From Candidatus Eiseniibacteriota bacterium (GTDB lineage: Bacteria > Eisenbacteria > RBG-16-71-46 > SZUA-252): a stretch of DNA of 64,000 nucleotides. Location of the stretch: positions 6,360 to 70,359 of the forward strand of contig DASTKG010000052.1 in the NCBI GenBank assembly GCA_035716005.1, given 5' to 3'. Made by a program: the position numbers and the translations under genes. This document shows, piece by piece, positions 50,041 to 63,907 of this stretch; position 1 is the stretch's first letter, and every line of letters starts with the position of its first letter. Under the pieces are notes generated by a model. That model did not search any database, was not told the origin of the DNA, and saw only the letters and a list, made by a program, of their open reading frames with translations.

Positions 50041-52156
50041 GCGCCTCCTGCTCGAGATCGGCTGCGAGGAGCTGCCGGCGTCGTTCGTCGGGCCGGCCCT
50101 CGAGGAGCTGGAAGCGCTGGCGCGGGCGGGGCTCGCGGAAGCCCGTCTCTCGTTCGGAGCCGTTCGCGTCCTCGGCACGCCGCGCCGTCTGGCGCTTCTC
50201 GTCGAGGGGCTCGCCGAGCGCCAGGAGGACCGGACGCGGGAAGTGCTCGGCCCGGCCGTCCGCGTGGCCTACGACGCGAAGGGCGCTCCCACGAACGCCG
50301 CGGCGGGCTTCGCGAAGGGGGCCGGGGTTCCGGTGGAGTCGCTCGAGCGGGCCACGACGCCGAAGGGGGAGTACCTCATGGCGCGCGTGCACGACGTGGG
50401 GGAACCGTCGGCCAAGGTCCTGCCCGCGCTCCTCGTCTCCTGGATCACGGGAATTCACTTTCCGAAGACGATGCACTGGAACGCCACCGGGCGCTTCGCG
50501 CGTCCTGTCCGCTGGCTCGTCTCGCTCCTCGACGGGGATCTCCTCCCGCTGGAGTGTTTCGGAGTCGCCGCCGGCACCCGGTCGAGAGGGCACCGGACGC
50601 TCGCCCCGGGATGGGTCGAGATCGGGCGCCCCGAGCGCTACGTCGACGCTCTCCGCGACGCGGGGGTCGTCGTCGATCCCGCCGAGCGGCGACGCCGGAT
50701 CGAGGAGGAGCTGGCGAGCGCCGTGGTGCCGATCGGCGGGCGCGCGGTGGAGGACGCCGAGCTCCTCGACGAGGTGACGCAGCTCGTCGAGTGGCCCGAA
50801 GCGGTGGTCGGCTCGTTCGACTCGAAATACCTCCAGCTCCCGCGGCCGGTCGTCGTGACCGCCATGCGCGCCCATCAGCGCTACTTCGCCGTGGAGCGCC
50901 CCGACGGCTCGCTCCTCGGGAATTTCGTCATGATCCGGAGCGGCCGCGGCGACGGGGCCGACCAGGTGCGCCGCGGAACGCAGGCCGTCCTTCGAGCGCG
51001 GCTCGAGGACGCCCGGTTCTACTGGGAGAACGATCTGAAGGGCGGGCTCGAATCGAAGCTGGAGACACTCAAGGGAATCGTCTGGCACGAGAAGCTCGGG
51101 TCGATCTACGACCGCACGCAGCGTCTCGGATTTCTCGTCGACGACCTGGCCCGATCGCTCGCGCCGAACGCCCGCGCCGCCGCCTCCCGCGCCGCGCGGC
51201 TCTGCAAGGCCGATCTCGCGACCGAGATGGTCCGCTCGGGCAAGGAGTTCGCCACGCTCCAGGGGATCGTGGGCGCCGAGTACGCGGCGGCGACCGGCGA
51301 GCCCGAGGGCGTGGTCCGGGCGATTCGCGAGCACTACCTCCCGCAGGGGCCTTCCGACCCGCTTCCCGCGACCGTGGAGGGGACGCTCCTGAGTCTGGCC
51401 GATCGGATCGAGGCGATCGTCGGCGGGCTCAGGGCCGGCCTCGAGGTGACGGGCTCGCAGGACCCGTACGGGCTTCGCCGCGCGGGGAACGGGGTCGTGC
51501 GGATTCTCCTCGAGAAGCAGCTCCGTCTCGACGTGCTGGAAGTCGCGTCCCGACTCTCGGCGTACTTTGAGAAGTCGGGCGTCCCGGTCGACCCCAAGGC
51601 GGGCGACCTGGTCGCCTTCTGGGCCCAGCGGCTCGAGAGCGCGCTGGAGGAGCAGGGGGTGACCCACGACACGGCGGCGGCGGTTCTGGCCGTCCGTCCC
51701 GGGGATCCGCTCGACGTCCTGGCGCGGGCCCGCGCGATCGACGAGATCCGCCGGAGCGAGGACTTCGAGGGCCTCATGGTCGGCTACCGGCGGGCCGCGA
51801 ATCTCCTCCGCACGGCCAAACCGGGCGACATTTCCGGCTCGGGGTCGCCGCTGGCCGAGCGCGCCGAGAATTTCGGGGAGAAAGTGGAGGCCGATCTCCA
51901 CCTCGAGACGAAGATGGCGAGGCAAGCGGTGGAGACGCTCCTCCAGGGCGACGCGCCCGATTATCCCAAGGCGCTTCGGATCCTCCTCGGCCTCCGACCG
52001 CCGATTGACGGATTCTTCGACGGGGTGATGGTTATGGTAGACGACACCGTCGCTCGTCGGCGTCGCCTCGGACTCCTCGAAGAGGTCCGGCAGACGTTTC
52101 TACGAATAGCGGACTTCTCCGCCCTCCCGGCGGGCGCAGGTCAAAAAGCTACTTGA
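50033..52156 (+). CDS. glyS: Glycine--tRNA ligase beta subunit
   Basis: GlyS N-terminus ([12 protein letters not shown]). 707 aa. GTG overlaps the glyQ stop. Confidence 0.93.
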
Positions 52157-52181
52157 CACTAGCCGGTTTCTGACCTATACT
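52153..52181 (+). promoter_or_regulatory. Perfect-consensus sigma70 promoter TTGACA-N17-TATACT with upstream A5 tract
   Basis: -35 is at 52153..52158 and overlaps the glyS stop codon. -10 is at 52176..52181. An AAAAA tract lies 5 nt upstream of the -35. GC content drops sharply downstream. Confidence 0.65.
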
Positions 52182-52187
52182 GGGCGG

Positions 52188-52627
52188 GTAAAGGAGATAG
52201 AATAATCTGTCTCCAGACAGCCGCAACCGCTAGAACCGATTGATATTACAGCGAATGCACGACACCCGATGGGCTGACGGTGCGGCTCGCTTTGTCTTTG
52301 GGGTTACTCGCGTTCGGCGCGTTTTCGCTTATTCGAGAGATTGATGGTAAGGGGGTGAGAGGACAGAGCGCTCTCTGGCTACCACTCGATTTTTGAAGAA
52401 GTTATGGAATGTGGATCGATTCGACGAAATTCAAAAGAGAGAAAGGAGGTCGGTAGGATTTCTCGTGAAGGGTAAGTCCATCAGCGCTCGAACTGTCCCG
52501 AACGAGCGGACGAACCCGACGCAGCACTCCAGACTCAACTAGAATTACCGAATCCCGTGTCGTGAAGTTCCAGTTAGTCCTCCCGATCTAGGGCTCCGAG
52601 TCAGGAAACACTAAGGAGGATGTGACA
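52188..52627 (+). other. Long (~440 nt) low-GC 5' leader / possible small RNA upstream of the 1248-aa gene
   Basis: Lies between the consensus promoter and the AAGGAGGA RBS. It begins with an 8-bp stem-loop at 52194..52215 (GGAGAUAG-aauaau-CUGUCUCC). A short CGCG-uucgg-CGCG hairpin followed by UUUU sits at 52311..52327. There is no convincing ORF. Confidence 0.4.
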
Positions 52628-55600
52628 ATGCGGAAAACCTTGTTCGCCTTGCTGGGTCTCGTGGCGATCGGATCGTGGGCCGTCCCGGCCCTCGCCGGTG
52701 TCGCTTTCAACGACCCGCCCAAGGCGTTCGCGCCGATTCCGCTCGAGAATCGTGCGGGCGCTATCGGAGCAATGGCAAAGAGCGGCACCAATTACCAGGC
52801 CACGCTGAGCGGCACGCTCATCAAGCAGGCGTCGGCCACCACCTCGTGGTTCCTCTATCCGGGCGCTTGCACCGACCGTGCGAACAACACGTGGGTGCCT
52901 CGTACCGCGGTCCAGGCCGACTCGCTCAACTCGTACCTCGTCGGTTCGCAGGGCGGATACGGGCGTGCGGATCAGTCGCTTTCCGAGAAGCTGTTCCATA
53001 TCGTTAGCTCGGGCCTGCCGGTCGGCCAGAAGCCGAACGGCATCAACGGCACGAACGCGATCTGGGCCGGAAAGTACGACGCGAACTGGGTGAACCCGGT
53101 CGGCTATCCGAACCTCACGAACCAGATCCTTTACATCGATCTCGAGTCGAACCGGGCGCCGATCGCGGCGAACACCGGTACGTACACGATCACGATGAAG
53201 CTGAACAGCTCCACCGAGCAGAATTACGACTTCCTGTACTTCATCGGTGGCGGCGATGCCGACGCGAACAACTTCGGCGACGAAGATCCGCTCGGCAACG
53301 ACCGCGGCGGCTTCGACCAGGTTCGCTCGACCGGATCGTTCGACGCTGCCACGCTTCAGGCCACGCTCACCGGCTCCATCATCGCCACGACCTCGGGTCT
53401 CCTGCCGTTCATCAATGGCTCGGCGGGTCCGACGATCGTGGGCGAGGGCGGTTCGCAGCCGGCGACGGTCAACCTGAACTTCCACATGACGACGGACAAC
53501 CGTGCGTTCTACATCCTCTTCACCGCCGACTGTCTCTTCTCGAGCGAAGACGGCCTCTGGCCCTTCGGCACGGGCGTGACGATCGACGACCTCACGGTGT
53601 TCGACGGCAGCGTGACCCGTAACCTCTACGTCGACCAGACGGCTGCCGGCGGCTCGGACACGGTGGGTGGCGACATCCTCGTGGCCGATCCGATCACGGC
53701 GACCGAGACGGACGGCGTGCGCATCTCGGCCCGCGTGTTCCCCGGCAAGGGCGAGCTCTGGGCCATCCAGCAGGGCAGCAGCTACACCACGTCCGACATC
53801 TGCCAGACGCAGAAGAACGCCACCACGGACCGCTTCTTCCTGGGCGTCGACCCCGTGACCAAGAACGCGCTTCCCGGCCAGTTCAACTCGGTCGTGACGT
53901 GCACGTTCGCGGTGCCGGCCGGCACGGCCGACATCACGGCGCTCTGGGGCGAGTACCTGAACCTGCCGCGTACCACGGGCTACGTTCAGTACTCGGAGTA
54001 CCGCTACTTCAAGGACGGCTCCTGGTCCAACTGGGAGAATACGGCTGCCGGCGGCGGTGTCCGCACGTCGGTGATCGACCAGTGGGTGGTTGACGGCGAT
54101 CCGCTCGCCTCGGCCGTCCAGGCCGATTCGTTCCAGGTCCGCTACAACATTCAGTGCATCACGGCGTTCGCCGCTGACCGCACGAATTGCGACAACAACA
54201 CGCAGTACGCCGTGCTCTACGACGACCTGTTCCTGCAGGTCACGACGGGCGTTCCGGCGCCGGTGTTCGGTATCTTCCCGGGTTCGGTGGCGCAGTCGAC
54301 CTTCGTCGACGGCAACATGACCGGCTTGAACTGCACCGTCACGCCGTGCTGGCCTGGCATCCGTGGTTCGGACCTCCAGACCAACCCGAACGTCGACATC
54401 GCTCGTAGCGCGGTGAAGGACAATCTCAACTCGCCGCTCGGCGACTCGCTCACGATGTCCTTCGTGACCGGTCTCCGCAAGAACGGCATGGGCATCAACT
54501 GGCACTACGGTTACGACAAGTCTGTGAACGGCGGTCTCACCGTCGCGATCACGAACGGCGCGTACAACCCGGCGTTCGATACGCCTCGGGTGATCTACCG
54601 CCTGTTCGACCCGGCCTCGAAGACCTGGAGCCCGTGGGACTCGACGTCCCTCAACGGCAACAACGTCTCCGTCGCGGGCGACACGGTCGTCATCGACTCC
54701 GAGTACCGCTTGAACTGGCCGCCGGCCGACAAGGTTGGTCTCAACCTGCCGGGCGGATTCACGATCAACGGTCAGGGCGCCTACAACAACCTGGCGTTCC
54801 TCCCGCGCGGTACGCGGATGCAGTACTACTTCAAGGCGGTCGACATCAACGGCGGCGTCAGCTACCAGTTCACGACCGATGCGCTCTCGCGCGAGGTCGA
54901 GGACCTGCCGACGCTTCCGGGCAGCGCGAACATCGCTGCTGACATCGTCGAGTTCGACGTTCTCCCGCGCGTTTATCCGGCGGGCACGGCGGGGACGCTT
55001 GCGGCGGGTCGCACCGACACGCCGGTCCTGAATCTCGACGGCGCCTACTGTGGTTGGGGCTTCGGCCAGGATCCCGTCACCGCGGCTCTCCGCGGCATGG
55101 GCGTCCGCGCCGACCGGTACCGTCCTCTCGCGGCGATCGACGAGGGTCATCTCCTCGGCGGGCACGAACTCGCCCCCGATCGTCCGTCGCGTCAGAGCAA
55201 TTACTTCCCGAATAAGGATGAGTACGGGATCAAGGATTCGCTCGCGACGTGGTACCGCATCATGATCCAGAATTCGCACACCAGCACGGTCCCGTCGATC
55301 GACGAGTCCGCGGCTCAGCTCGTTTCCGACTGGGCGGCCACGGATACCGGCGCTAACGGCGGCGATCGCTGCATCTTCTTCTCGGGCGATGACGCCTTCA
55401 ACTCGCTGACCAACTCTCCGGTCGGCGTCCCCGGCGCCCGCAAGCTCGCGCTCTCGACGGCCGTCTTCGGCGTCGCGAACGTGGTGACGCTGGCTCCGAG
55501 CGCGGCGAAGGGCTCCTGGGCGGGTACGACCGGCAATGCGTATCCGACCATCGATGACCGCTTCGCGGCTCAGGCTTCCGGTCCTGGTCTCGCGGCCCCC

Positions 55601-56374
55601 GGTTCGTTCACCTACGAAGTCGACGGTGGATGCCCCGGTCCGAACCGCTTCGATCCTCTCACCCCGACGGGCGGTGCGGTTGCTGCGGCGACCTTCCCGG
55701 TCGCGGCGGGCGTGACGGACGTCGCGGGTGTGGCCAAGGCGAGCGAGCTCGACAACACGCCCGACCTCGACCAGACCAAGGCCCTCAGCTACGGTTACTC
55801 GATCCAGTTCGTGCGTGGCACCGCGGGCGTGATTCCGCGCAACGCGGCCAACTACGTGCGTTCGGGCGTCCAGAACCGCATGCAGATTCTCTACAAGTTC
55901 CTGACGGGTTGCCGCGGCGCTCGTGGTGCTGGCTCGCTCTGCTGGCCGTGCCCGACGGATGCCAACCTGATCAGCAACTGGCTCACGGCGCCGGGCTTCA
56001 ACACGGCGACCTACGGCCCGCTCTATCCGATTCAGGACTTCACGAAGGCGACGGGTGTCGAGGTCGAGGAAGCGTCCGCGGCTCCGCGGGTCAACCGCAT
56101 CTTCGGCAACAGCCCGAACCCCTTCAACCCGATGACCAAGATCTCGTTCAGTGCCGCGCAGGCGGGCAAGGTCACGATCCGTATCTTCAACGTGGCCGGC
56201 CAGCTCGTTCGCACCCTCGAGACCAAGGTTGAGACGCCCGGAACCGCGAGCGTCTACTGGGATGGCATGTCGGATCGCAACGTCAAGTCGGGCAGCGGCG
56301 TGTACTTCTACAAGGCCACGTTCGCCAACGGCACCACGTTGACGGCCGATCGCAGCATGGTGCTCGTGAAGTAA
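52628..56374 (+). CDS. Large secreted protein of unknown function with a T9SS-type (Por_Secre_tail-like) C-terminal sorting domain
   Basis: Signal peptide (LFALLGLVAIGSWAVPALAG). About 1150 aa with no recognised catalytic motif. The final ~85 aa match the T9SS C-terminal-domain pattern (NSPNPFNPMTKISFS..GKVTIRIFNVAGQLVRTL.....SGVYFYKA....MVLVK). The strong RBS AAGGAGGA lies 7 nt before the ATG. Confidence 0.8.
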   Translation: MRKTLFALLGLVAIGSWAVPALAGVAFNDPPKAFAPIPLENRAGAIGAMAKSGTNYQATLSGTLIKQASATTSWFLYPGACTDRANNTWVPRTAVQADSLNSYLVGSQGGYGRADQSLSEKLFHIVSSGLPVGQKPNGINGTNAIWAGKYDANWVNPVGYPNLTNQILYIDLESNRAPIAANTGTYTITMKLNSSTEQNYDFLYFIGGGDADANNFGDEDPLGNDRGGFDQVRSTGSFDAATLQATLTGSIIATTSGLLPFINGSAGPTIVGEGGSQPATVNLNFHMTTDNRAFYILFTADCLFSSEDGLWPFGTGVTIDDLTVFDGSVTRNLYVDQTAAGGSDTVGGDILVADPITATETDGVRISARVFPGKGELWAIQQGSSYTTSDICQTQKNATTDRFFLGVDPVTKNALPGQFNSVVTCTFAVPAGTADITALWGEYLNLPRTTGYVQYSEYRYFKDGSWSNWENTAAGGGVRTSVIDQWVVDGDPLASAVQADSFQVRYNIQCITAFAADRTNCDNNTQYAVLYDDLFLQVTTGVPAPVFGIFPGSVAQSTFVDGNMTGLNCTVTPCWPGIRGSDLQTNPNVDIARSAVKDNLNSPLGDSLTMSFVTGLRKNGMGINWHYGYDKSVNGGLTVAITNGAYNPAFDTPRVIYRLFDPASKTWSPWDSTSLNGNNVSVAGDTVVIDSEYRLNWPPADKVGLNLPGGFTINGQGAYNNLAFLPRGTRMQYYFKAVDINGGVSYQFTTDALSREVEDLPTLPGSANIAADIVEFDVLPRVYPAGTAGTLAAGRTDTPVLNLDGAYCGWGFGQDPVTAALRGMGVRADRYRPLAAIDEGHLLGGHELAPDRPSRQSNYFPNKDEYGIKDSLATWYRIMIQNSHTSTVPSIDESAAQLVSDWAATDTGANGGDRCIFFSGDDAFNSLTNSPVGVPGARKLALSTAVFGVANVVTLAPSAAKGSWAGTTGNAYPTIDDRFAAQASGPGLAAPGSFTYEVDGGCPGPNRFDPLTPTGGAVAAATFPVAAGVTDVAGVAKASELDNTPDLDQTKALSYGYSIQFVRGTAGVIPRNAANYVRSGVQNRMQILYKFLTGCRGARGAGSLCWPCPTDANLISNWLTAPGFNTATYGPLYPIQDFTKATGVEVEEASAAPRVNRIFGNSPNPFNPMTKISFSAAQAGKVTIRIFNVAGQLVRTLETKVETPGTASVYWDGMSDRNVKSGSGVYFYKATFANGTTLTADRSMVLVK

Positions 56375-56396
56375 GCGAGTTCCAGCAGCAGCGGAA

Positions 56397-56431
56397 GGGC
56401 CGCCAGGTTCGCCTGGCGGCCCTTTTCGTTT
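56397..56431 (+). terminator. Rho-independent terminator
   Basis: GGGCCGCCAGG-uucg-CCUGGCGGCCC followed by UUUUCGUUU, 23 nt after the stop codon. Confidence 0.8.
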
Positions 56432-56557
56432 GCCCCCGGTGGGCCTGAATGGCACACTTGGCGGCGCCGGGGCCGCGCCGCCTGGATCGCCCCATGCCCC
56501 GCCCCTCGAACCGGCCCGATCGGCTGAACTGGGCCTTCCGGACCAGGTAAAATCGGT

Positions 56558-56655: not shown

Positions 56656-58212
56656 ATGCCCCAGCGCGTTGCGTGGCGCACCGCCGCCCGTCCCGTTGTG
56701 ATCCTTGTCGGGCTCGCCGCATTGCTGGCGGCCTGCGCCAAAGAACCAGTCGCCGTCGATCGGAATCGCCCTCCGCGCACCTATCTCGTGTCGGCGCCGC
56801 CGGAGAGCGGTTCGTTCTCCTATCGCATTCATCTCTACTGGCGCGGCGAGGATCCGGACGGCTACGTGGTCGGATACCAGTGGGCGTGGGACGATTCGAG
56901 CATCAACGCGTTCCACTTCACCACGAAGACGGACACGATCTTCGAGCTCGCCGTGAACGACTCGGCCACCATCACCGGCGGCAACACCAACCAGCCGCCA
57001 GGGACGTCGAAGGGCCATACGTTCTTCATCCGCGCGGTGGACAATCTCGGCAAGCCCGATCCGAACCTGGCCGTATTCAACAGGCGCATCATCATCTCCA
57101 CGACGGTGAAGCCCACGGTGGCGTTCAAGCCCCCGCTCCCGGGCCCGGGGCCCGGCGTCGACTCGCTCTGCGACGGGCAGCCCTTCGAAGTATGCTGGGG
57201 CGGTAGCGATCCGGACGGGAGCATTCTCGGATACAAGTTCGACGTCGGCTCCTACAGCAGCCCGATCGTCCGGGATTCCTGCGTCAGCTTCAACGACGCG
57301 AACAATCCGAACTCCATCGCGCTGGCGAGCGGCCTCTACACGCTGACGGTCCAGTCGGTCGACAACGCCTACGCGCTGAGCGATCCCGGCGCGAGCAAGT
57401 TCCTCTTCGTCGTCAACCGCGATCCCGTCACCTGGTTCAAGGACGCGTCGGGCGGACGGGGCATCCCGGTCGGCTACTACATCGCGCCGTATCTCCGCGG
57501 GCAGCTCGTGCCGCCGACGATCAGGCAGTTCGCCCCCGGCGACACGGTTCCGTATCGGTCCACCGTCTGGTGGCAGTGGGACGGGGAGGACAATGCGTGC
57601 GACAGCCCGAGCGGCATCAACGCGTTTTCGCTCTCCGGGCAGGTCTATCACAACGGCAACGTGCCCTACATCATCGGCTTCCTGCCCGAAATCGCGCCCG
57701 GGATTCCGTTCAAGACGAACGATCCGGTCGTGCTGGGGCAGAACAATTTCTCCAACCTGATCCTCGACTCCCTCGACGCGGGGAACGGCATTCTCATGCG
57801 AGTCCGCGCGCGGGACCTCTCGAACCGCATCTCGGGGCTCCAGTACTCCGGGGAGTTCACGTTCAACTGCAACTTCCCGCCCAAGCTGAAGAACTTCCGA
57901 GTCTGCGACGCCTGCTCGCTCGGACAGAAGTGGAAGCGCTTCGAGTGGGACGCCGAGGATGAGGAGGACGGATTCCCGGCCGAGGCCACGCTCTACCTGG
58001 AGAACGGCCTCGACACGAGGACGGTTCTCGGCCCGAATTTCTTCTACATCCCCGAACGAGTGTTCCGGGACTTCTCCCCGACGAATCCGCACGTCGCCGA
58101 GGTGCGGGTCAAGGATCGCGCCGGCTATGCGTCCGCGGAACGCCTGAAAGTGACGTTCAACGTCGATTACGTAGACACATTGTGCAATTTCCCCAACGCA
58201 CCTTGTCCCTAG
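56656..58212 (+). CDS. Lipoprotein with repeated W-x-G-x-D-P-D-G Ig-like modules (paralog A)
   Basis: Lipobox LLAACA. At least four repeats are present (HLYWRGEDPDGYVVGYQW; EVCWGGSDPDGSILGYKF; VWWQWDGEDNACDSPSG; FEWDAEDEEDGF). Y_Y_Y-like motifs appear as well (LYTLTVQSVDN, LFVVNRDPVTWF). Confidence 0.75.
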   Translation: MPQRVAWRTAARPVVILVGLAALLAACAKEPVAVDRNRPPRTYLVSAPPESGSFSYRIHLYWRGEDPDGYVVGYQWAWDDSSINAFHFTTKTDTIFELAVNDSATITGGNTNQPPGTSKGHTFFIRAVDNLGKPDPNLAVFNRRIIISTTVKPTVAFKPPLPGPGPGVDSLCDGQPFEVCWGGSDPDGSILGYKFDVGSYSSPIVRDSCVSFNDANNPNSIALASGLYTLTVQSVDNAYALSDPGASKFLFVVNRDPVTWFKDASGGRGIPVGYYIAPYLRGQLVPPTIRQFAPGDTVPYRSTVWWQWDGEDNACDSPSGINAFSLSGQVYHNGNVPYIIGFLPEIAPGIPFKTNDPVVLGQNNFSNLILDSLDAGNGILMRVRARDLSNRISGLQYSGEFTFNCNFPPKLKNFRVCDACSLGQKWKRFEWDAEDEEDGFPAEATLYLENGLDTRTVLGPNFFYIPERVFRDFSPTNPHVAEVRVKDRAGYASAERLKVTFNVDYVDTLCNFPNAPCP

Positions 58213-58248: not shown

Positions 58249-60528
58249 ATGATCCGGAACATCCTGAAGCTGGTCCCAGTCCTGCTCTTCGCGGCCGTCG
58301 CGGCTCTCTTCGCGGGTTGCTCGAAGGACAATACCGCGGGCCCGACTCCGGTGAAGCAGAACCCGGAGACCGAGCTGACGTACGCGCCGCTGCAGGGAGA
58401 CACCGCGGGGTATCGCGTCCGCCTCTATTGGAACGGCTACGATCGCGACGGAGAGGTGGTTCGGTTCCGCTACGCGATCGACTCCGACACGCTGGAGCCC
58501 GATCCCACGAAGTGGAAATCGACCACCGCCAAGGACACGACGCTGCTCCTTCTCGTCGACCCGGTGAAGGAGATCCGTGGGCACGTCTTCTGGGTCTCCG
58601 CGGAGGACAACGAGGGCCGGATCGATCCGACGCCCGCGAAGCGGTTCTTCTCCACGAAGACGATTCCGCCGACCTCGGAGATCCTCCGGGGACCGTCGGC
58701 GTTCAACGCGATCATCGGCCCGAACTTCACGTATGAATGGGAGGGGATCGATCCCGACGGCGGCGAGACGGGCGGCCGCGCTCCCTGCGATTCGTTCGAA
58801 TACCTGTTGCTTCTGATCGGGGCCGTGAACGATCCGAACACGCCGCCGACGCATCCGCCTCTCCCCCAGTTCAATCAGACGTTCTACGTCAATCTGATCA
58901 ACGCGAGCGTGAACGACACGCTCGTGGCGCCTCACGGAGACTGGCGCTGGACCGGAATCCGGGGAACCCGCCTGCGGGTCCGGAACGCGAGCCCCGGCGA
59001 GTACGTCTTCGCCCTGCGCGCGGTCGACCTGGCCGGCGCGCGTGAGAAGAACATCGCCTTCGTGCGGAACATCCGGCACTTCACGGTCACGAACCGGAAC
59101 CCCGGGCCGACGCTGACCATCGAGGCAAGCGTGCTGACGACGCCTCTGCCGACGGCGACGGGACCGGAGGATTTCCCGCGGCGCGAGATCCAGATCTTCG
59201 AAGGCGAGATCATCTCCTTCTCCTGGTCGGCGTCGGCCGACGCCTATGGCGGCAGCATCGTCGGGTTCACGTACGCTCTCGACGACACGGCGTCGTTCCC
59301 CGGCCTCGACGTCAGGAATATCGGCGTGACCTACCGGCCCCAGGATCTGGGCGTGGGCCTCCACTACCTTTTCGTGCGGGTCTTCGACGACGGCGGTCTG
59401 AGAACGAACGCCATCATCCCGTTCCGGATCGTTCATCCCACGTTCAAGGACCCGCCGGGTCCGTTGAACCCGCCGTCGTACCTCTACGTGGATGACGCCC
59501 TTTCTCCGGGCGTGAACAACAGGAATCGCTTCTTCAACTACCCGTCCGACGCCGAAGAGGACGAGTGGATGCGGATCAACGTCCTGACACCCATTTCTCT
59601 GGCCACCGGCGTCGGCAAGTCCGACTGGGACACGTTCGGCAAAGGCGACGAGGGCGGGGGAGGATCCCGAATTCAGCCCCTCCCGGCCGATCTGGCGCCC
59701 TACCGCGTCGTGATCTGGAGCGTCGACCACAACAACCAGGTCGGGAATCCGACGGCGCTCTGGCTGACCCTGGTCGGCGGGGCCTACAGCGATCTGGGCG
59801 GATACCTGCGCGCGGGCGGAACCCTGGTTCTCTACGGCTTCTCGGTCGCCAGCAGCATCGTACAGCCGACCACGGCTCTGACGGCGAACTTCTCACGAGG
59901 AATCTGCTTCGCGTTCCCGGCGAACACCCTCGGCTACAACCAGACGTTCTTCCCCCGGTCGATGATGGGGATCGACGGCGCCAGAGCCGCCGACGAAGGG
60001 TTGCGGAGGCAGGGCGCGAAGGACTTCCTGGAGGCGCGGGTGACCCCGCAGGGCGCCGCCCTCGGATATCAGACGGCGGTCGTCGACACGGGCGCGGGCA
60101 ACAAGTGGGACGGCAAGCTCGTGGCCGGAGATCCCGAGTCGTCCTGGGCTCCGGGCCTCCCGCGTATCGAAGGCTGGAAGATGGCCTCGCTCTTCAACTG
60201 CGAGCCGAGCCAAGGGCTCCTTCGCAAGGAGGACGCGAGCAGGCCGATCTCGACGCCTCTCTACACGTACCACGGGGCCCCGATCGGGATCTACATGACG
60301 GGGGCTCAGTCGCCGCGCGAGAACCTGATCGTCGGCGTCCAGGTGCAGGCGCACGACGTCGGCGGCTTCGGTGGCGGGACGGTCACACAGGGTTCCCTGG
60401 GCGTCATCGGACGCGTCGTGGTGCTCGGGTTCCCGATGTACTTCCTGAAGGATGCCCAGGCGACGTCGATCATGCTGACCGCCTTCAACTACGTGAACGG
60501 GTCGCCGACGCTGCCCCTGATGCCATAG
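58249..60528 (+). CDS. Lipoprotein with W-x-G-x-D-x-D-G modules (paralog B, 759 aa)
   Basis: Lipobox LFAGCS. The N-terminal repeats are homologous to the upstream gene (YRVRLYWNGYDRDGEVVRFRY; FTYEWEGIDPDGG). The C-terminal half is unique. The RBS GAGGAG 36 bp after the upstream stop suggests co-transcription. Confidence 0.75.
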   Translation: MIRNILKLVPVLLFAAVAALFAGCSKDNTAGPTPVKQNPETELTYAPLQGDTAGYRVRLYWNGYDRDGEVVRFRYAIDSDTLEPDPTKWKSTTAKDTTLLLLVDPVKEIRGHVFWVSAEDNEGRIDPTPAKRFFSTKTIPPTSEILRGPSAFNAIIGPNFTYEWEGIDPDGGETGGRAPCDSFEYLLLLIGAVNDPNTPPTHPPLPQFNQTFYVNLINASVNDTLVAPHGDWRWTGIRGTRLRVRNASPGEYVFALRAVDLAGAREKNIAFVRNIRHFTVTNRNPGPTLTIEASVLTTPLPTATGPEDFPRREIQIFEGEIISFSWSASADAYGGSIVGFTYALDDTASFPGLDVRNIGVTYRPQDLGVGLHYLFVRVFDDGGLRTNAIIPFRIVHPTFKDPPGPLNPPSYLYVDDALSPGVNNRNRFFNYPSDAEEDEWMRINVLTPISLATGVGKSDWDTFGKGDEGGGGSRIQPLPADLAPYRVVIWSVDHNNQVGNPTALWLTLVGGAYSDLGGYLRAGGTLVLYGFSVASSIVQPTTALTANFSRGICFAFPANTLGYNQTFFPRSMMGIDGARAADEGLRRQGAKDFLEARVTPQGAALGYQTAVVDTGAGNKWDGKLVAGDPESSWAPGLPRIEGWKMASLFNCEPSQGLLRKEDASRPISTPLYTYHGAPIGIYMTGAQSPRENLIVGVQVQAHDVGGFGGGTVTQGSLGVIGRVVVLGFPMYFLKDAQATSIMLTAFNYVNGSPTLPLMP

Positions 60529-60561
60529 GCCGCTCGGCCGCCTTCCCGCGGCACGCGACGG

Positions 60562-60602
60562 GGCCGCGTTCACCTCACCGGTGGACGCGGCCTCTCGCTT
60601 TT
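60562..60602 (+). terminator. Rho-independent terminator candidate
   Basis: GGCCGCG...CGCGGCC stem with an inner CACCGGTG palindrome, followed by UCUCGCUUUUCGG. Confidence 0.5.
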
Positions 60603-60739
60603 CGGACACGACGGCTCGGACTCGGGCGATCGACGGCAACTCCTGTTCCCGAGGCGCGACGAGCATCTCTCCCGTCGGTTGAATTTCAGTTCGCGGTTTC
60701 TCCGCCCGTCCTTGATTCTTCCGGCCAGTCGCTCTTCGG

Positions 60740-61115
60740 ATGCACGTCTGGGCGACGGACTCTCAGGACGCGAAGCGGACGCACGAGGGCGTGGTCCGGG
60801 CGTTCGAGCACTTCGGCGGCGTGGTGCGCGAAGTGCCGGTGGACAACCAGAAGTGCGCGCCGCTCGATGATCGTCCCGGGAACGGCCGCGGTTCAACGAG
60901 CGGTTCCTCGACCTCGGCCACCACTACGCTACGTGATGCGGAACTTCTTCGTTCGCTACCGCGAGTTCGAGAGCTACGCCCACCTGAATCAGCTCCTCGA
61001 GCGGTGGTTGAGAGAGGAGGCCGATCCCCGGATCCACGGCACCGTGCGGGAAGTGGTGGCGGCGCGGTTTCTCCGGGAGGCGCCGACGCTCACGCCGCCC
61101 CCTGGAGACCTATGA
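60740..61115 (+). pseudogene. istA: istA (IS21 transposase) C-terminal fragment, multiple frameshifts and internal deletion
   Basis: See the mobile-element entry. The segments are in frames 1, 0 and 2 in turn, with an in-frame stop after HHYAT. Confidence 0.7.
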
Positions 61116-61127
61116 GGAGGTGGCGAC

Positions 61128-61632
61128 GTGGAATTGACCACCTTCCTCGAACGGATGAAGCGGGAGCATCCGGCCGCGCGGATCGACAGCGTCTGCGAGC
61201 AGGCCGCGGGACAGGACCTCGACTACAAGAGGTTCCTCGCCCAGGCCCTGGTGACGGAATGCCAGGGCCGATTCCGTCGGGGGATCGAGGCCCGCGGGAA
61301 GCTGGCGCGGTTCCCCTGGATCAAGGCCCCTCGACCAGTTCGACTTCGACTTCCAGCCGAGCCTCGATCGGAAGATCGTGCGCGAGCTCGCCTGGCTCTC
61401 CGTCGTCGAGCGGGCGCACAACGTGGTGCTCCTCGGCCCGCCGGGCGTCGGCAAGACGGACCTGGCCATCTCGCTGGGGATGAACGCGGTCGAGGCAGGC
61501 TACTCTGTCCTGTTCCTCACCCTGGAGCAATTGATGACCCGGCTCACGCGGGCTCGGCAGGAGAACCGGCTCGAGCGCGCGCTTCAGCAGCATGTGTATC
61601 CCAGAGTGCCGATCCTCGACGAGCTCGGCTAG
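61128..61632 (+). pseudogene. istB: istB (IS21 helper ATPase) fragment, frameshift near 61325 and truncation after ILDELG
   Basis: Walker A GPPGVGKT is in a different frame from the N-terminal MELTTFLERMK segment. The C-terminal ~80 aa are missing. Confidence 0.7.
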
Positions 61633-61779
61633 GGCTAGAGCTGCCGGCTGAAGGAGAAACGCCGGGCCGGCCTTCTCGGCCAAATCCCCCAGCGCCAGCC
61701 CGAGGAGGTTGCCACGGCGGGACGATCGCATCGGCGATCAGGGGACAAAATCGTCGGCGATCGGGGGTGTGACGCGGTG

Positions 61780-61821
61780 GCCGACAAGGAAACGGCCGCG
61801 GAGCCGAGGCCCCGCGGCCGT
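61780..61821 (-). terminator. Rho-independent terminator for the minus-strand PD40/T9SS-CTD gene
   Basis: On the minus strand: ACGGCCGCGG-loop-CCGCGGCCGU followed by UUUCCUUGUCGG, 29 nt after the stop. Confidence 0.55.
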
Positions 61822-61849
61822 TCGTGCTTCTGTTACGAGTGGCTCTGGC

Positions 61850-63706
61850 TTACTTCGCCATCACCATCTTGACGACGTCGGACGTGATCTCGCTGCCCTT
61901 GCCGTCGCCGACCGAAGCCTTCGCGAAGTAGATACCCGAAGCAGCCTTCGCGCCGGTGCTGGTCGAACCATCCCACGCAGCCTCGTGCGAACCGGTCCCG
62001 TAGTTGCCGCTGGCGACGGTCTTCACGAGCTCGCCGCGCACGTTGTAGACGCGGACGTTCACGAAGCCGGGCTTGGCGACCGAGAAGCGGATCTTGGTCA
62101 CGGGGTTGAAGGGATTCGGCGAGTTCTGCTCGAGACGAACCACCTGGCCGGCCGCGTTGTTGGACGAGAGCTTGAGGTAGCCGTAGCCCTGGAACTGGCG
62201 GCCGCGGGTGCTCGAGTAAGCGGTAACCGGGCAGATGACGGTCTGATTGACGAGACCGAGAGCGACAAGGCGAGCCTCGACCGTCTTACGGTTGAGCTGC
62301 ATGATCGTCTCGTATTCCCCGCCGTTGACCTGGTTCGTCATCGCGGCGAACGGCGCACCGTTCACGGCCGAGGTCGGTCCAGGCTGGCCGAGGAAGGTCG
62401 GGCTGATGATGATCGAGTTGCGGTTCTTGATGCCCTCGTGTCCGGCCGGAATGCCGATGAAGCCCTTGTCGTCGACGTCGGCGACGGCCACGAATCCGGC
62501 GGCCTGCGTCTCGGCGGGCATGCTGATCGTCACGTTGAGATTCCCGCCATTGCTGCCCAAGTTGAGGGTCGTCGGGCTGATCGCGACGCCGAGCGGGAGA
62601 GCCGGGAAGCAGTTGTTCGCGCTGGCACGCCAGATGCCGAGACCGAAGTTGGCGCCCTGGCTGGAGCAGAGGAACAGGTTGTACGGGTTGCCGTCGAGGT
62701 TGAAGTTCGTCAGGGACGAGACATCCGGATCGGCGTCGCCGCGATTGTCGAAGAAGATGTCGCACTTCGACTGCGTCGCGAGGTCGAGCTTGAAGATGTC
62801 GGTGTTGTTGTTGATGTCCTCGCCCTGCGGAGCGTCATAGAAGATCGACGCGCCGTCGGACGACCACGACGGGTTGTTGTGCGAAATCGAGGCGAAATTC
62901 GTCTCGGCGAGGTAGAACGTGCCCGGAGCGTTGAGGTCGGCGATCTCGATCACGTTGCGGCCGAACTTGTTGGTCGCGTACGCGATCAGATTGTTGGGAC
63001 CCCACGTCGGGTTGATTTCCGACCGGGCGTCGTTCGTGGTGGCGCGCGCCGGGACGCCGACCGTGGCGGTCGGAACGTCGACCGAGACGTACCAGATGTC
63101 GGTCGAAGGACCCGCCGCGTTCGACGCGTAGCAGAGCGCCGTGCCGTCCGGCTTCCAATCGGGGGTGCGATTGATGACGCCGGGGGCGGCCGGGACGACG
63201 AGCAGGGGCGAACCGACCGGGGTCGTCGCGGCGAGCGTGGTCGTTCCGGTCATGTACTCCTGGACGTAGATCGCCGACTGCGTGATCTGGCCGTCCGTCT
63301 GCACGTACGCGAGGTACTTGCCGTTCGGGCTCCACGCCGGATCCGTGTAGGAGACCATGGCGGCGGGATCAAGGAGCATCGGACGACGAGCGTCCATAAT
63401 GTCGGCCACCGAGAAGCCGATCTGAGCGGCATTCTGGCCGAGCCAGATCGAACGAACGGTTTCGCTGCCGACCACGGTGCTGCGGGTGGAGAACGAGTAC
63501 CAGCGCTCGGTCTGCGCATGGCCGCCGTTCGCCCGGATATTGGCGTTGCGGAGCGACGGCTGCTCGCAGCCGTTCGCGAGGCCTGTGTTGAACGGTGCAC
63601 CATTCGTGAGGGGATCCCAGACCCCACGAAGGGCCGCACTCGCATGTACCGGCACGAGCGCGAAGAAGAGCGCCAGCAGCACGGTCACACCTAGCAGTTT
63701 CTTCAT
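61850..63706 (-). CDS. Secreted PD40/TolB-like beta-propeller protein with T9SS-type C-terminal sorting domain
   Basis: Signal peptide (MKKLLGVTVLLALFFALVPVHASA). PD40-like repeats (YTDPAWSPNGKYLAYV; NRTPDWKPDGTALCYASN; EINPTWGPNNLIAYATN; HNNPSWSSDGASIFYDA). The C-terminal ~90 aa match the T9SS C-terminal-domain pattern (NSPNPFNPVTKIRFSV..PGFVNVRVYNVRGELVKTV....SGIYFAKA....MVMAK). Confidence 0.85.
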   Translation of the reverse strand: MKKLLGVTVLLALFFALVPVHASAALRGVWDPLTNGAPFNTGLANGCEQPSLRNANIRANGGHAQTERWYSFSTRSTVVGSETVRSIWLGQNAAQIGFSVADIMDARRPMLLDPAAMVSYTDPAWSPNGKYLAYVQTDGQITQSAIYVQEYMTGTTTLAATTPVGSPLLVVPAAPGVINRTPDWKPDGTALCYASNAAGPSTDIWYVSVDVPTATVGVPARATTNDARSEINPTWGPNNLIAYATNKFGRNVIEIADLNAPGTFYLAETNFASISHNNPSWSSDGASIFYDAPQGEDINNNTDIFKLDLATQSKCDIFFDNRGDADPDVSSLTNFNLDGNPYNLFLCSSQGANFGLGIWRASANNCFPALPLGVAISPTTLNLGSNGGNLNVTISMPAETQAAGFVAVADVDDKGFIGIPAGHEGIKNRNSIIISPTFLGQPGPTSAVNGAPFAAMTNQVNGGEYETIMQLNRKTVEARLVALGLVNQTVICPVTAYSSTRGRQFQGYGYLKLSSNNAAGQVVRLEQNSPNPFNPVTKIRFSVAKPGFVNVRVYNVRGELVKTVASGNYGTGSHEAAWDGSTSTGAKAASGIYFAKASVGDGKGSEITSDVVKMVMAK

Positions 63707-63877: not shown

Positions 63878-63907
63878 AGTATACGCGTCCGATCGATGAA
63901 GTGTCAA
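63878..63907 (-). promoter_or_regulatory. Consensus sigma70 promoter (minus strand) TTGACA-N18-TATACT with upstream A5 tract
   Basis: Reverse complement of 63902..63907 is TTGACA. Reverse complement of 63878..63883 is TATACT. TTTTT at 63912..63916 supplies the A-tract. The promoter sits ~170 nt upstream of the CDS start. Confidence 0.6.

Follow-up and report, generated by a model that had tools for sequence, protein, structure and literature searches.

A conserved secreted protein of Candidatus Eisenbacteria with a T9SS-type C-terminal domain and a structured 5' leader: a possible cell-surface scaffold or adhesin

The window analysed here (64,000 nucleotides of contig DASTKG010000052.1, assembly GCA_035716005.1, from a Candidatus Eisenbacteria genome) carries a gene for a secreted protein of 1248 amino acids, which lies in the gene order glyQ-glyS-leader-gene-lipo518-lipo759, an arrangement conserved at ~50% protein identity. 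The features of the locus are as follows:

52153..52181, + strand: sigma-70-type promoter, TTGACA-17-TATACT (11/12 consensus score)
52188..52627, + strand: conserved structured 5' leader of ~440 nt, the inferred 5' UTR (nhmmer and covariation)
52192..52215, + strand: leader hairpin P1 (AGGAGAUAG / CUGUCUCCA; compensatory changes at 5 of 9 pairs)
52220..52299, + strand: long-range leader stem P2 (GCCGCAACCG ... CGGUGCGGC; covarying pairs 89:148 and 100:139)
52469..52517, + strand: leader hairpin around GCUCG/CGAGC (7 compensatory pairs in helices 11-12, 1 in helix 13)
52577..52585, + strand: anti-Shine-Dalgarno GUCCUCCCG, pairing with GGAGGAU of the Shine-Dalgarno (SD)
52613..52630, + strand: SD AAGGAGG, 8-nt spacer and ATG
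52628..56374, + strand: reading frame of the 1248-aa protein, from ATG (alternative GTG at 52622; open reading frame and coding signals)
52628..52696, + strand: Sec signal peptide, residues 1-23, cleavage after ALA (by eye from sequence)
52697..53017, + strand: N-terminal segment and 'strap' (WFLYPGAC...ADSLNSY), residues 24-130 (BLASTP of variant paralogues)
53018..53692, + strand: variable jelly-roll 'head', ~residues 131-355 (approximate boundaries)
53693..55042, + strand: core beta-sandwich region, ~residues 356-805 (approximate boundaries)
55043..55822, + strand: ThuA/GATase1-like alpha/beta domain, ~residues 806-1065 (approximate boundaries)
55823..56113, + strand: Cys-rich helical tail CRGARGAGSLCWPCP and low-confidence linker
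56114..56374, + strand: C-terminal sorting domain (CTD), type A T9SS / FlgD-Ig-like, residues 1163-1248, with stop codon (TIGR04183, PF13860)
56397..56431, + strand: intrinsic terminator, GGGCCGCCAGG-UUCG-CCUGGCGGCCC then UUUUCGUUU (from sequence)
56656..58212, + strand: co-conserved lipoprotein of 518 aa, lipobox LAAC, repeated Ig/PKD-like domains (synteny in 10 loci)
58249..60528, + strand: co-conserved lipoprotein of 759 aa, lipobox FAGC
61850..63706, - strand: PD40/TolB-like beta-propeller protein with a CTD of the same type (own 11/12 promoter at 63907)

That the 1248-aa secreted protein is encoded by a real gene, as the initial annotation had it, is borne out by several signals that all agree: the GC3 of the reading frame (0.87) equals that of the neighbouring genes, as expected of native codon usage, a signal peptide is present, full-length homologues of the plus-strand protein were found, and its AlphaFold model is confident. 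A 1284-aa reading frame on the opposite strand (52601-56455) was rejected as a high-GC artefact, since every coding signal favours the plus strand. The start is ATG 52628, with AAGGAGG 8 nt upstream and with ATGCGGAAAACC near-invariant over all orthologous loci; in the public MAG record P0001 (1237 aa) the start was placed 11 codons downstream, so that the signal peptide is truncated in that record. With its promoter, leader and terminator, the gene is a stand-alone transcription unit, and a terminator-like hairpin follows the stop codon at 12 of the 12 orthologous loci examined. The structured leader, the terminator, the two co-conserved lipoprotein genes and the restriction to one phylum were all absent from the initial annotation.

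The -35 hexamer of the promoter overlaps the glyS stop codon, and the promoter is conserved in 46 of 46 non-redundant leaders. It had been described, together with the ribosome-binding site, as the strongest in the window. The 11/12 score and the AAGGAGG are real, but the score is tied with that of one other site in the window (63907, minus strand), the promoter is ~440 nt distal, and a conserved anti-SD is predicted to sequester the ribosome-binding site by pairing with it.

With nhmmer the leader was recovered in full length at 64 loci, and each copy immediately precedes an orthologue of the gene. The proposed structure pairs 94.7% of cells, compared with 35-45% in slid controls, and covariation amounts to 0.149, versus 0.026-0.053 in the controls. 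No conserved reading frame was seen in the leader, the indels between its conserved blocks not being multiples of three, and Rfam 15 gave no leader match at gathering threshold for the window and nine orthologous loci, with noise only at E<=10. Stem P2 encloses a conserved internal region of ~48 nt, and the U-rich tract UCGCUUUGUCUUU that comes after it gives it the look of a terminator or attenuator; a terminator scan marks 52270-52299 within the leader. The covariance model R1 returned one match per orthologous locus and none elsewhere in 458 kb. Downstream, an invariant CCUCC is predicted to pair with the SD, and codons 2-3 with an upstream UUCC; this SD-masking helix appears in the MFE fold of the window's own sequence too. 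The anti-SD is invariant in 21 of 21 loci fetched through the protein, whereas in 56 metagenome loci, which were fetched with the anti-SD motif itself, invariance is given by construction.

Since the ribosome-binding site forms part of a conserved helix that would mask it, the gene is probably regulated, not just expressed as strongly as possible; a high abundance of the protein is what the expression signals, and only these, would suggest. As a candidate new regulatory RNA the leader is well supported, and it appears to be a structured RNA not described before. SD-masking 5' leaders are known as RNA thermometers and translational riboswitches, and the mRNAs of S-layer and outer-membrane proteins have long stabilising leaders. 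The Eisenbacteria leader resembles the SD-masking type in its long 5' UTR, conserved helices and CCUCC:SD pairing, but it is far longer (~440 nt), possesses a separate 5' element of P1/P2 and a U-tract, and belongs to no Rfam family.

The signal peptide, MRKTLFALLGLVAIGSWAVPALA (followed by GV), displays by eye a basic n-region, a hydrophobic core and an AxA site, and is kept in the orthologue consensus. The mature protein measures 120 kDa. The full-length sequence is rich in Gly, Thr and Asn, as first noted (11.0%, 9.1% and 6.5%, respectively), with Ala also high (10.8%), and its pI is 4.6. Cysteines had been remarked upon toward the C-terminus; indeed, C1095, C1105 and C1108, among 14 in total, fall within CRGARGAGSLCWPCP, and C1105 and C1108 are invariant, variant paralogues included. 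The body between signal peptide and CTD is compact and disulfide-containing.

Pfam identified the CTD as FlgD_ig (PF13860; 36.9 bits, threshold 27; residues 1172-1234), and NCBIfam as a type A sorting domain (TIGR04183; 26.3, cut-off 23), while Por_Secre_tail (PF18962) remained sub-threshold (22.6 versus 27). Outside the CTD, ~1130 residues found no match in Pfam, NCBIfam, PHROGs or PDB sequence searches, with PHROGs yielding no match at all. The claim of a body without a recognisable sequence family thus stands, since a confident full-length match to a characterised family, which was to have counted against it, was searched for and does not exist.

At the level of structure, in contrast, the statement that no domain besides the CTD is recognisable does not survive, as the AlphaFold model (pLDDT below 50 at residues 1121-1135) resolves into common folds, namely jelly-roll CBM/MAM-like sandwiches and a ThuA/GATase1-like domain. 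The alpha/beta fold of class I glutamine amidotransferases is present in the latter; the Pfam ThuA (PF06283) and GATase models do not match the protein, and by sequence alignment the GATase Cys-His-Glu triad and the G-x-C-x-G elbow are missing, the elbow after strand RCIFFS reading S-G-D-D. The closest ThuA-/GATase1-like non-catalytic domains are those of PDB entries 3rht, 2gk3, 4jqs and 1t0b, the GH42 middle domain, the GIFT domain of IFT52, and OST48, from which the present domain differs in sequence (5-16% identity) and in being embedded in a secreted protein of 1248 aa.

A profile search of 1.84 billion representative proteins returned only 87 hits; the full-length hits examined are all members or variants of the same family, and the rest are short partial-profile fragments. 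Relatives with a named source all derive from Candidatus Eisenbacteria MAGs or from probable mis-binned contigs, and the 31 genome loci are almost all from Eisenbacteria MAGs. On these hits, the family is confined to a single uncultured soil phylum, Eisenbacteria. Identity across the phylum is at least 47%, with 110 invariant positions and 14 Cys, a pattern more expected of a constrained machine or enzyme than of a coat protein that evolves fast. By module, conservation is lowest in the head and highest in the core. In genomes where two copies can be compared, there is one glyS-linked orthologue locus.

The paralogues keep a ~770-aa core and the CTD, and substitute other N-terminal domains for the jelly-roll head; the strap (conservation 0.68) is common to all core-bearing paralogues by BLASTP. 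One of them, P0124, mounts Trypsin_2 on the core (31.7 bits, threshold 27.6), with the motifs TACHV, DWAVV and NNSGS read by eye as the His, Asp and Ser sites, while P0128 and P0125 give sub-threshold matches of Peptidase_C13-like and alpha/beta-hydrolase-like (lipase-like) type, respectively. The head, for its part, is found by itself in P0153, P0155 and P0161. Of 94 core invariants, 73 are retained by the variant paralogues, all of them Asp, Trp, Gly, Pro or Cys, and the family core keeps neither a His nor a Glu as invariant when these paralogues are included in the alignment.

Of the two lipoproteins, the 518-aa one has no match in Pfam or NCBIfam and weak Ig/PKD matches in the PDB, and hhalign shows homology of its first ~180 aa with the 759-aa lipoprotein (99.1%). 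In the latter, beta-rich Ig/FN3-like domains at the N-terminus precede a ThuA/GATase1-like domain, whose fold recurs in the 1248-aa protein, for which hhalign detected no sequence-level relation to either lipoprotein. Homologues of the PD40/TolB-like protein are located downstream of the lipoprotein genes in three further loci (L007, L009 and L021).

The initial annotation proposed a novel surface enzyme or adhesin. The enzyme half of this proposal is the less likely one, because invariant His and Glu residues are missing from the core, the GATase nucleophile motif is lacking, and the paralogues swap their N-terminal domains, a confident trypsin-like protease being one of those attached to the core. 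A core without invariant His/Glu under exchangeable heads leads us to read the protein as a display scaffold or adhesin, and we give an even chance to the gene encoding a phylum-specific, non-catalytic surface protein of this kind, possibly an S-layer-like coat. A catalytic site appears to be absent, judged from sequence conservation.

Under this reading, the protein would cross the inner membrane by Sec, and fold and form its disulfides in the periplasm, whereupon the CTD would carry it over the outer membrane via a putative T9SS-like route, to stay on the cell surface. S-layer proteins, adhesins and enzymes are all among the known cargo of T9SS (PMC10202324). The conserved core may act as a dock to the lipoproteins and/or a surface glycan, via its invariant Asp and Trp residues, leaving the variable head facing outward to bind ligands; on the same dock, paralogues could present hydrolases. 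Opening of the SD-masking helix of the leader would gate translation. Clostridioides difficile CWB2 cell-wall proteins, including the protease Cwp84, similarly combine a common anchoring module with a varying functional domain. The likeness, of one conserved module in a major structural paralogue and in hydrolase-bearing ones, is an analogy only, as module, envelope type and secretion route are wholly different. The gingipains RgpA/Kgp of Porphyromonas gingivalis consist of a catalytic head, cleaved-adhesin domains and a CTD, whereas the Eisenbacteria protein has a lectin-like jelly-roll head in place of a protease, and a ThuA/GATase1-like domain in its core, which gingipains do not; it matches neither Cleaved_Adhesin nor Peptidase_C25 of Pfam.

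A more specific version of the scaffold reading, credible but unlikely, is that of an S-layer protein forming a two-dimensional lattice, T9SS-exported, glycan-anchored and self-assembling through its core like TfsA/TfsB of Tannerella forsythia, with the ThuA-like domain as oligomerisation module (cf. GH42 trimers). S-layer genes are typically monocistronic, their promoter and terminator being strong and their leader long and structured, all of which recurs here. GATase1-like domains mediate oligomerisation in GH42 enzymes, so the fold match is in keeping with a lattice, as are the size, low pI and G/A/T/D/N-rich composition of the protein, its T9SS-type CTD, and paralogues with a common assembly core and differing functional domains. 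S-layer proteins are usually fast-evolving with few or no Cys, however, which the cross-phylum identity and the 14 Cys contradict, and the masked SD speaks for regulated, not constitutive maximal, synthesis. Furthermore, no homology to known S-layer proteins was detected in Pfam, NCBIfam, the PDB or the 1.84 billion representatives, and that last search brought up nothing resembling TfsA/B (if they are in the library). According to two publications (PMC10202324, PMC4175972), TfsA and TfsB are T9SS-exported, anchored on the cell and, like the Eisenbacteria protein, large (>1100 aa) surface proteins that begin with a Sec signal and end in a type-A CTD. They form an S-layer, whereas the Eisenbacteria protein, known from its sequence and a monomer model, has no detectable sequence relation to them, is Cys-rich and highly conserved across its phylum, and has a host outside Bacteroidota.

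It is improbable that the protein is instead an enzyme whose active site is novel, such as a hydrolase acting on glycans or peptides, with its catalytic centre in the ThuA/GATase1-like domain or between this and the adjacent sandwich, as in dimethylformamidase or GH42/GH164. The very high conservation and the many invariant Asp, Arg and Lys residues would suit such an enzyme, but no Pfam or NCBIfam enzyme family was matched, and HEXXH (its absence already reported), HxxEH and GxSxG were all absent in a motif scan of the protein, as is the nucleophile elbow. H821, E822 and H859 (model numbering) are invariant in full-length members but replaced in variant paralogues. The fold-matched enzymes hold their catalytic residues in other domains, either TIM barrels or, in dimethylformamidase, a metal site in the beta-barrel, and the bona fide protease domain added in paralogues suggests that the core itself is not the catalyst. 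An enzyme would nevertheless agree with the proposal that Eisenbacteria subsist on proteins and peptides (10.1101/2025.11.25.690425).

The export route rests on the CTD, and here the initial description of a secreted protein with a T9SS-type tag is upheld by the signal peptide and by TIGR04183. No paper linking Eisenbacteria with T9SS came up in our literature search. That the domain is no T9SS signal in this phylum, and serves as a FlgD-Ig-like element for cell-wall or outer-membrane attachment of a periplasmic or otherwise exported protein, seems quite improbable to us. The best Pfam match is indeed FlgD_ig, with Por_Secre_tail below threshold; NCBI taxonomy places Eisenbacteria outside the FCB group; a GldK/PorK FGE-sulfatase motif search found no T9SS gene in 857 kb of sequence (a very weak test); and reviews describe T9SS as a Bacteroidota system. 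Against this, the domain exceeds the curated cut-off of TIGR04183, carries the type-A features NPFNP...I near its start and GVYFY near its end, and matches in profile not only FlgD but also the CTD of PorZ in the PDB. The same tag, moreover, ends the PD40 propeller, a GSDH protein and the paralogues with trypsin- and lipase-like domains, with 58 NPFNP motifs in the family loci sequence; as one tag on many different secreted proteins, it behaves as a sorting signal. Very improbable, finally, is a part of the secretion or attachment machinery (a CTD-retaining functional analogue of PorU or PorZ, not cargo): occurrence is phylum-wide, with one glyS-linked locus, in genomes where two copies can be compared, in a conserved housekeeping context, the length is similar to that of PorU, and the PorU model NF033707 is the best NCBIfam match, but that match reaches 37.9 bits against a cut-off of 420 in the CTD only, no full-length match with the C25-like peptidase domain was found, and strong expression signals with swappable heads suit cargo or a structural protein more than a machine component of low copy number.

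The scaffold or adhesin reading may be extended, tentatively, to an undescribed, phylum-defining envelope structure, in which a T9SS-exported coat or scaffold would join the two lipoproteins, as dedicated partners, through docking of the ThuA-like domains on both sides, under a new class of long cis-regulatory RNA with a 5' P1/P2 attenuator-like element and a signal-responsive SD-masking switch. If true, this would be direct evidence of T9SS-type display as a core feature outside Bacteroidota. Few bacterial phyla are as poorly characterised as the uncultured Eisenbacteria (10.1101/2025.11.25.690425), and of the conserved features of their surface this locus may be the most distinctive. The protein could be targeted in metaproteomics and used as an antigen to sort or enrich cells, the gene could serve as a phylogenetic marker for the phylum, and the locus lends itself to testing T9SS-type sorting outside Bacteroidota. 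The 440-nt leader offers a clear, testable mechanism of predicted SD masking, and the reusable core with its swappable heads suggests a natural surface-display platform.

The forward-strand ORF at 52622-56374 (1250 aa) is fully overlapped by a 1284-aa ORF on the reverse strand in the ORF listing. The forward-strand ORF is the real gene, since its GC3 of 0.87 is identical to that of the flanking genes, its product carries a signal peptide and a sorting domain, and the protein has homologues (158, mostly full-length) and a confident predicted fold. The sequence places the start at ATG 52628, which agrees with the length of 1248 aa proposed in the initial annotation: an AAGGAGG Shine-Dalgarno (SD) motif lies 8 nt 5' of this codon, and ATGCGGAAAACC is near-invariant across orthologous loci. 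An identical public protein from a Candidatus Eisenbacteria MAG (P0001, 'FlgD immunoglobulin-like domain containing protein') is annotated from GTG/Val12, 11 residues further on, a start that cuts the signal peptide; the 1248-aa form is preferred because of the conserved SD and ATG. The protein contains 14 Cys, CRGARGAGSLCWPCP among them, and the mature form has a pI of 4.6. It was described as Gly/Thr/Asn-rich, which is correct, although Ala is enriched as well. GC lies between 0.61 and 0.75 across the window (2-kb windows), and the lower GC of the gene is attributed to amino-acid composition, as its GC3 equals that of its neighbours; horizontal transfer was ruled out as the source on the same ground. 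Motif searches of the 1248-aa protein found neither HxxEH nor GxSxG, and the reported absence of HEXXH was confirmed; no internal repeats were found.

The sole Pfam match above threshold is FlgD_ig (36.9 bits, residues 1172-1234), with Por_Secre_tail and CHU_C falling below it. Among NCBIfam models, TIGR04183 (T9SS type A sorting domain) scored above its cut-off, in support of the C-terminal tag recognised initially, and several long T9SS models were matched solely through their C-terminal ~90 positions. PHROGs gave no match to the protein, while PDB sequence and profile searches returned matches limited to FlgD and the PorZ C-terminal sorting domain (CTD). Hence, the central statement of the initial annotation, that the protein belongs to no recognisable family, holds for ~1130 residues across Pfam, NCBIfam, PHROGs and the PDB. 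A CTD-free profile searched against 1.84 billion cluster representatives retrieved 87 proteins at E<=1e-3; those full-length hits that were examined belong to the same family, as members or variants, and the remainder, short fragments, match the profile only in part. Scanning one genome per GTDB species with the CTD-free alignment as query yielded 31 loci, nearly all in Candidatus Eisenbacteria MAGs, with two copies of the family in three genomes; NCBI treats this phylum as a candidate phylum, under the name Candidatus Eiseniibacteriota. The few loci with other labels have the same synteny as the Eisenbacteria loci and are probably mis-binned. Five of them (L006, L011, L022, L026 and L034), deposited as Bacteroidota, Dormiibacterota, Binatia, Hyphomicrobiales and Limnocylindrales MAGs, show the glyS-leader-gene arrangement, and are most likely mis-binned Eisenbacteria contigs.

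An AlphaFold2 model of residues 26-1160, built from the 80-sequence family alignment, has a mean pLDDT of 87.1 and a pTM of 0.87. The predicted body is compact and multi-domain rather than resembling beads on a string. Remote-homology searching of this model with Foldseek, the check suggested initially, gave no confident family match, although common folds were found through weak matches. Against the PDB, jelly-roll arrays were matched only weakly (E>=6e-6, TM about 0.1); the jelly-roll matches included CBM, MAM, Eph-LBD and gingipain-K1-adhesin structures. The DSSP string places an alpha/beta domain at residues ~800-1065; after it come a Cys-rich helical tail, a disordered linker and the CTD. 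ThuA/GATase1-like alpha/beta matches were to 3rht, 2gk3, 4jqs, 1t0b, the GH42 middle domain, dimethylformamidase, IFT52 and OST48; both the ThuA/GATase1-like and the jelly-roll labels are fold assignments, not family memberships.

The search of cluster representatives revealed variant architectures, which are as follows.

P0124 (locus L092, 8001-12119): a Trypsin_2 domain, 31.7 bits, above the threshold of 27.6
P0128 and P0130: a long N-terminal region; that of P0128 matches Peptidase_C13 just below threshold
P0125: a lipase/alpha-beta-hydrolase-like region, sub-threshold
P0133 and P0135: homology limited to residues ~555 onward
P0153, P0155 and P0161: the head without the core, combined with Big_9 or CarboxypepD_reg and a CTD

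In P0124, the motifs TACHV, DWAVV and NNSGS were read by eye as those of the catalytic His, Asp and Ser; its gene is preceded by rpsP-rimM-trmD-rplS-rnhB and followed by a glycosyltransferase gene. Every core-bearing paralogue keeps a short N-terminal 'strap' (residues ~60-130, WFLYPGAC...ADSLNSY), residues ~372-1135 and the CTD, while the jelly-roll 'head' (residues ~131-355) is absent where paralogues carry other N-terminal domains. Conservation among full-length members is lowest in the head (mean majority fraction 0.55; 9 invariant columns of 225) and highest in residues 546-805 (0.72; 39 of 260). Variant paralogues retain 73 of the 94 core invariants, and these are Asp, Trp, Gly, Pro and Cys with a few Arg, Lys and Ser, without any His or Glu; where full-length members have an invariant His or Glu, the variants carry other residues. 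The module swap and the conservation pattern argue against a catalytic core and for a platform with a structural, docking or glycan/Ca-binding role; they also point to the head as the exposed, diversifying part.

The gene is situated in a housekeeping region (aspartokinase, TolB-like proteins, clpB, hisS, aspS, a 7TMR-HD protein, DUF502, glyQ and glyS), to which one orthologous locus, L001, adds ybeY and recO. The order glyQ-glyS, a 470-nt gap, the gene, and the lipoprotein genes lipo518 (56656-58212) and lipo759 (58249-60528) is conserved between loci whose proteins are only ~50% identical; paralogues are located elsewhere, without the two lipoprotein genes. A promoter (TTGACA-17-TATACT, 11/12) overlapping the glyS stop codon and a terminator hairpin after the gene's own stop codon indicate, at the level of sequence, that it is its own transcription unit. 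This GC-rich hairpin with a U-tract is present in 12 of 12 orthologous loci, in many of which TTGACA for the next gene lies beyond it. The promoter, initially regarded as the strongest in the window, does score 11/12, but is tied with that of a neighbouring PD40/TolB-like propeller gene (61850-63706, reverse strand; promoter at 63907-63878, reverse strand, TTGACA-18-TATACT, 11/12), which bears the same CTD type. The propeller gene has a ~170-nt leader beginning with the hairpin GGGAACACGUGUUCCC, and its homologue is syntenic in L007, L009 and L021, where it ends within ~0.7-0.9 kb of the lipoprotein gene.

Both lipoproteins possess lipoboxes and have an Ig-like N-terminal region of ~180 aa in common (hhalign 99.1%), and neither matched a family in Pfam or NCBIfam. 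A sequence-level relation between them and the 1248-aa protein was ruled out (hhalign probability <1%), fold class alone being common to them. By structure prediction, two envelope proteins of the locus appear to have an uncommon extracytoplasmic fold in common, which suggests that the 1248-aa protein and lipo759 form a functional pair. The 1.3 kb between the second lipoprotein gene and the propeller gene (60529-61849) holds only high-GC ORFs without a Pfam match. One of these, at 61128-61772, was suspected to resemble an IS21 IstB N-terminus, but Pfam gave no support for an IS21 remnant at 60.6-61.8 kb.

The 470-nt gap between glyS and the gene is more than a spacer: a full-length leader element was found by nhmmer upstream of every orthologue, and a metagenome scan with the anti-SD...SD motif added 56 further loci. 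In the resulting set (64 full-length copies, 46 non-redundant, mean identity 65%), the RNAalifold structure has 94.7% of cells paired, against 35-45% in slid controls, and a covariation of 0.149, against 0.026-0.053; none of 500 shuffles reached 0.149, and compensatory change occurs at 16 pairs. The energy of the whole leader is not unusual (z = -0.65, not significant), so support for the structure comes from covariation. The best-supported helices are the following.

52192-52215, forward strand: hairpin P1
52220-52229 / 52278-52286, forward strand: long-range stem P2, with a U-rich tract after it
52469-52517, forward strand: leader hairpin

An anti-SD, GUCCUCC (52577-), is predicted to form a helix with the SD (GGAGGAU), and codons 2-3 would pair with UUCC. 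In the 21 loci reached by way of the protein, neither strand varies; loci selected with the anti-SD...SD motif provide no independent evidence for this invariance. A second GGAGG (52445), predicted to pair with CUCC (52527), could act as an anti-anti-SD. Rfam returned no match for the leader, and a known RNA (tmRNA, RNase P, 6S, T-box or riboswitch) was thereby ruled out. A uORF or small protein was likewise rejected, since no start codon is conserved and, between the conserved blocks, the reading frame is interrupted by indels whose lengths are not divisible by three. We conclude from the aligned sequences that the leader is a gene-specific structured RNA, predicted to mask the ribosome-binding site. 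The region 52153-52627, with promoter, P1, P2 and U-tract, covarying hairpins and anti-SD:SD helix, is a candidate new cis-regulatory RNA. At 52220-52299, a terminator-like stem is followed by UCGCUUUGUCUUU, ~110 nt past the inferred transcription start. A multi-copy riboswitch was rejected for this 5' element: in 458 kb, the only matches of its covariance model lie upstream of this gene. The element may be an attenuator, a small RNA in its own right or the terminator of glyQS.

As to function, we favour, at even odds, a non-catalytic surface scaffold or adhesin. Export of such a protein would proceed through Sec, followed by a T9SS-type route; its conserved core would serve as a dock and its variable, lectin-like head would be exposed. 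Paralogues would display hydrolases through the same core, and the leader would gate translation. An S-layer protein, a more specific sub-case of the scaffold, is plausible if not probable; both the Cys content and the strong conservation tell against it. A novel enzyme seems rather unlikely. That the CTD is not a T9SS signal in Eisenbacteria is doubtful; it accords with the description of T9SS as a system of Bacteroidota (PMC10202324). A GldK-like motif search in the collected loci, a very weak and uninformative test, gave no match. A PorU/PorZ-like machine part is very improbable.

Eisenbacteria are described as being among the most poorly characterised phyla, and CTD-tagged modular surface proteins are an already known kind. 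In the literature searched, no paper connects Eisenbacteria with T9SS. Described in none of the libraries searched are the family itself, its swappable-head architecture, its ThuA-like partners and its leader RNA.
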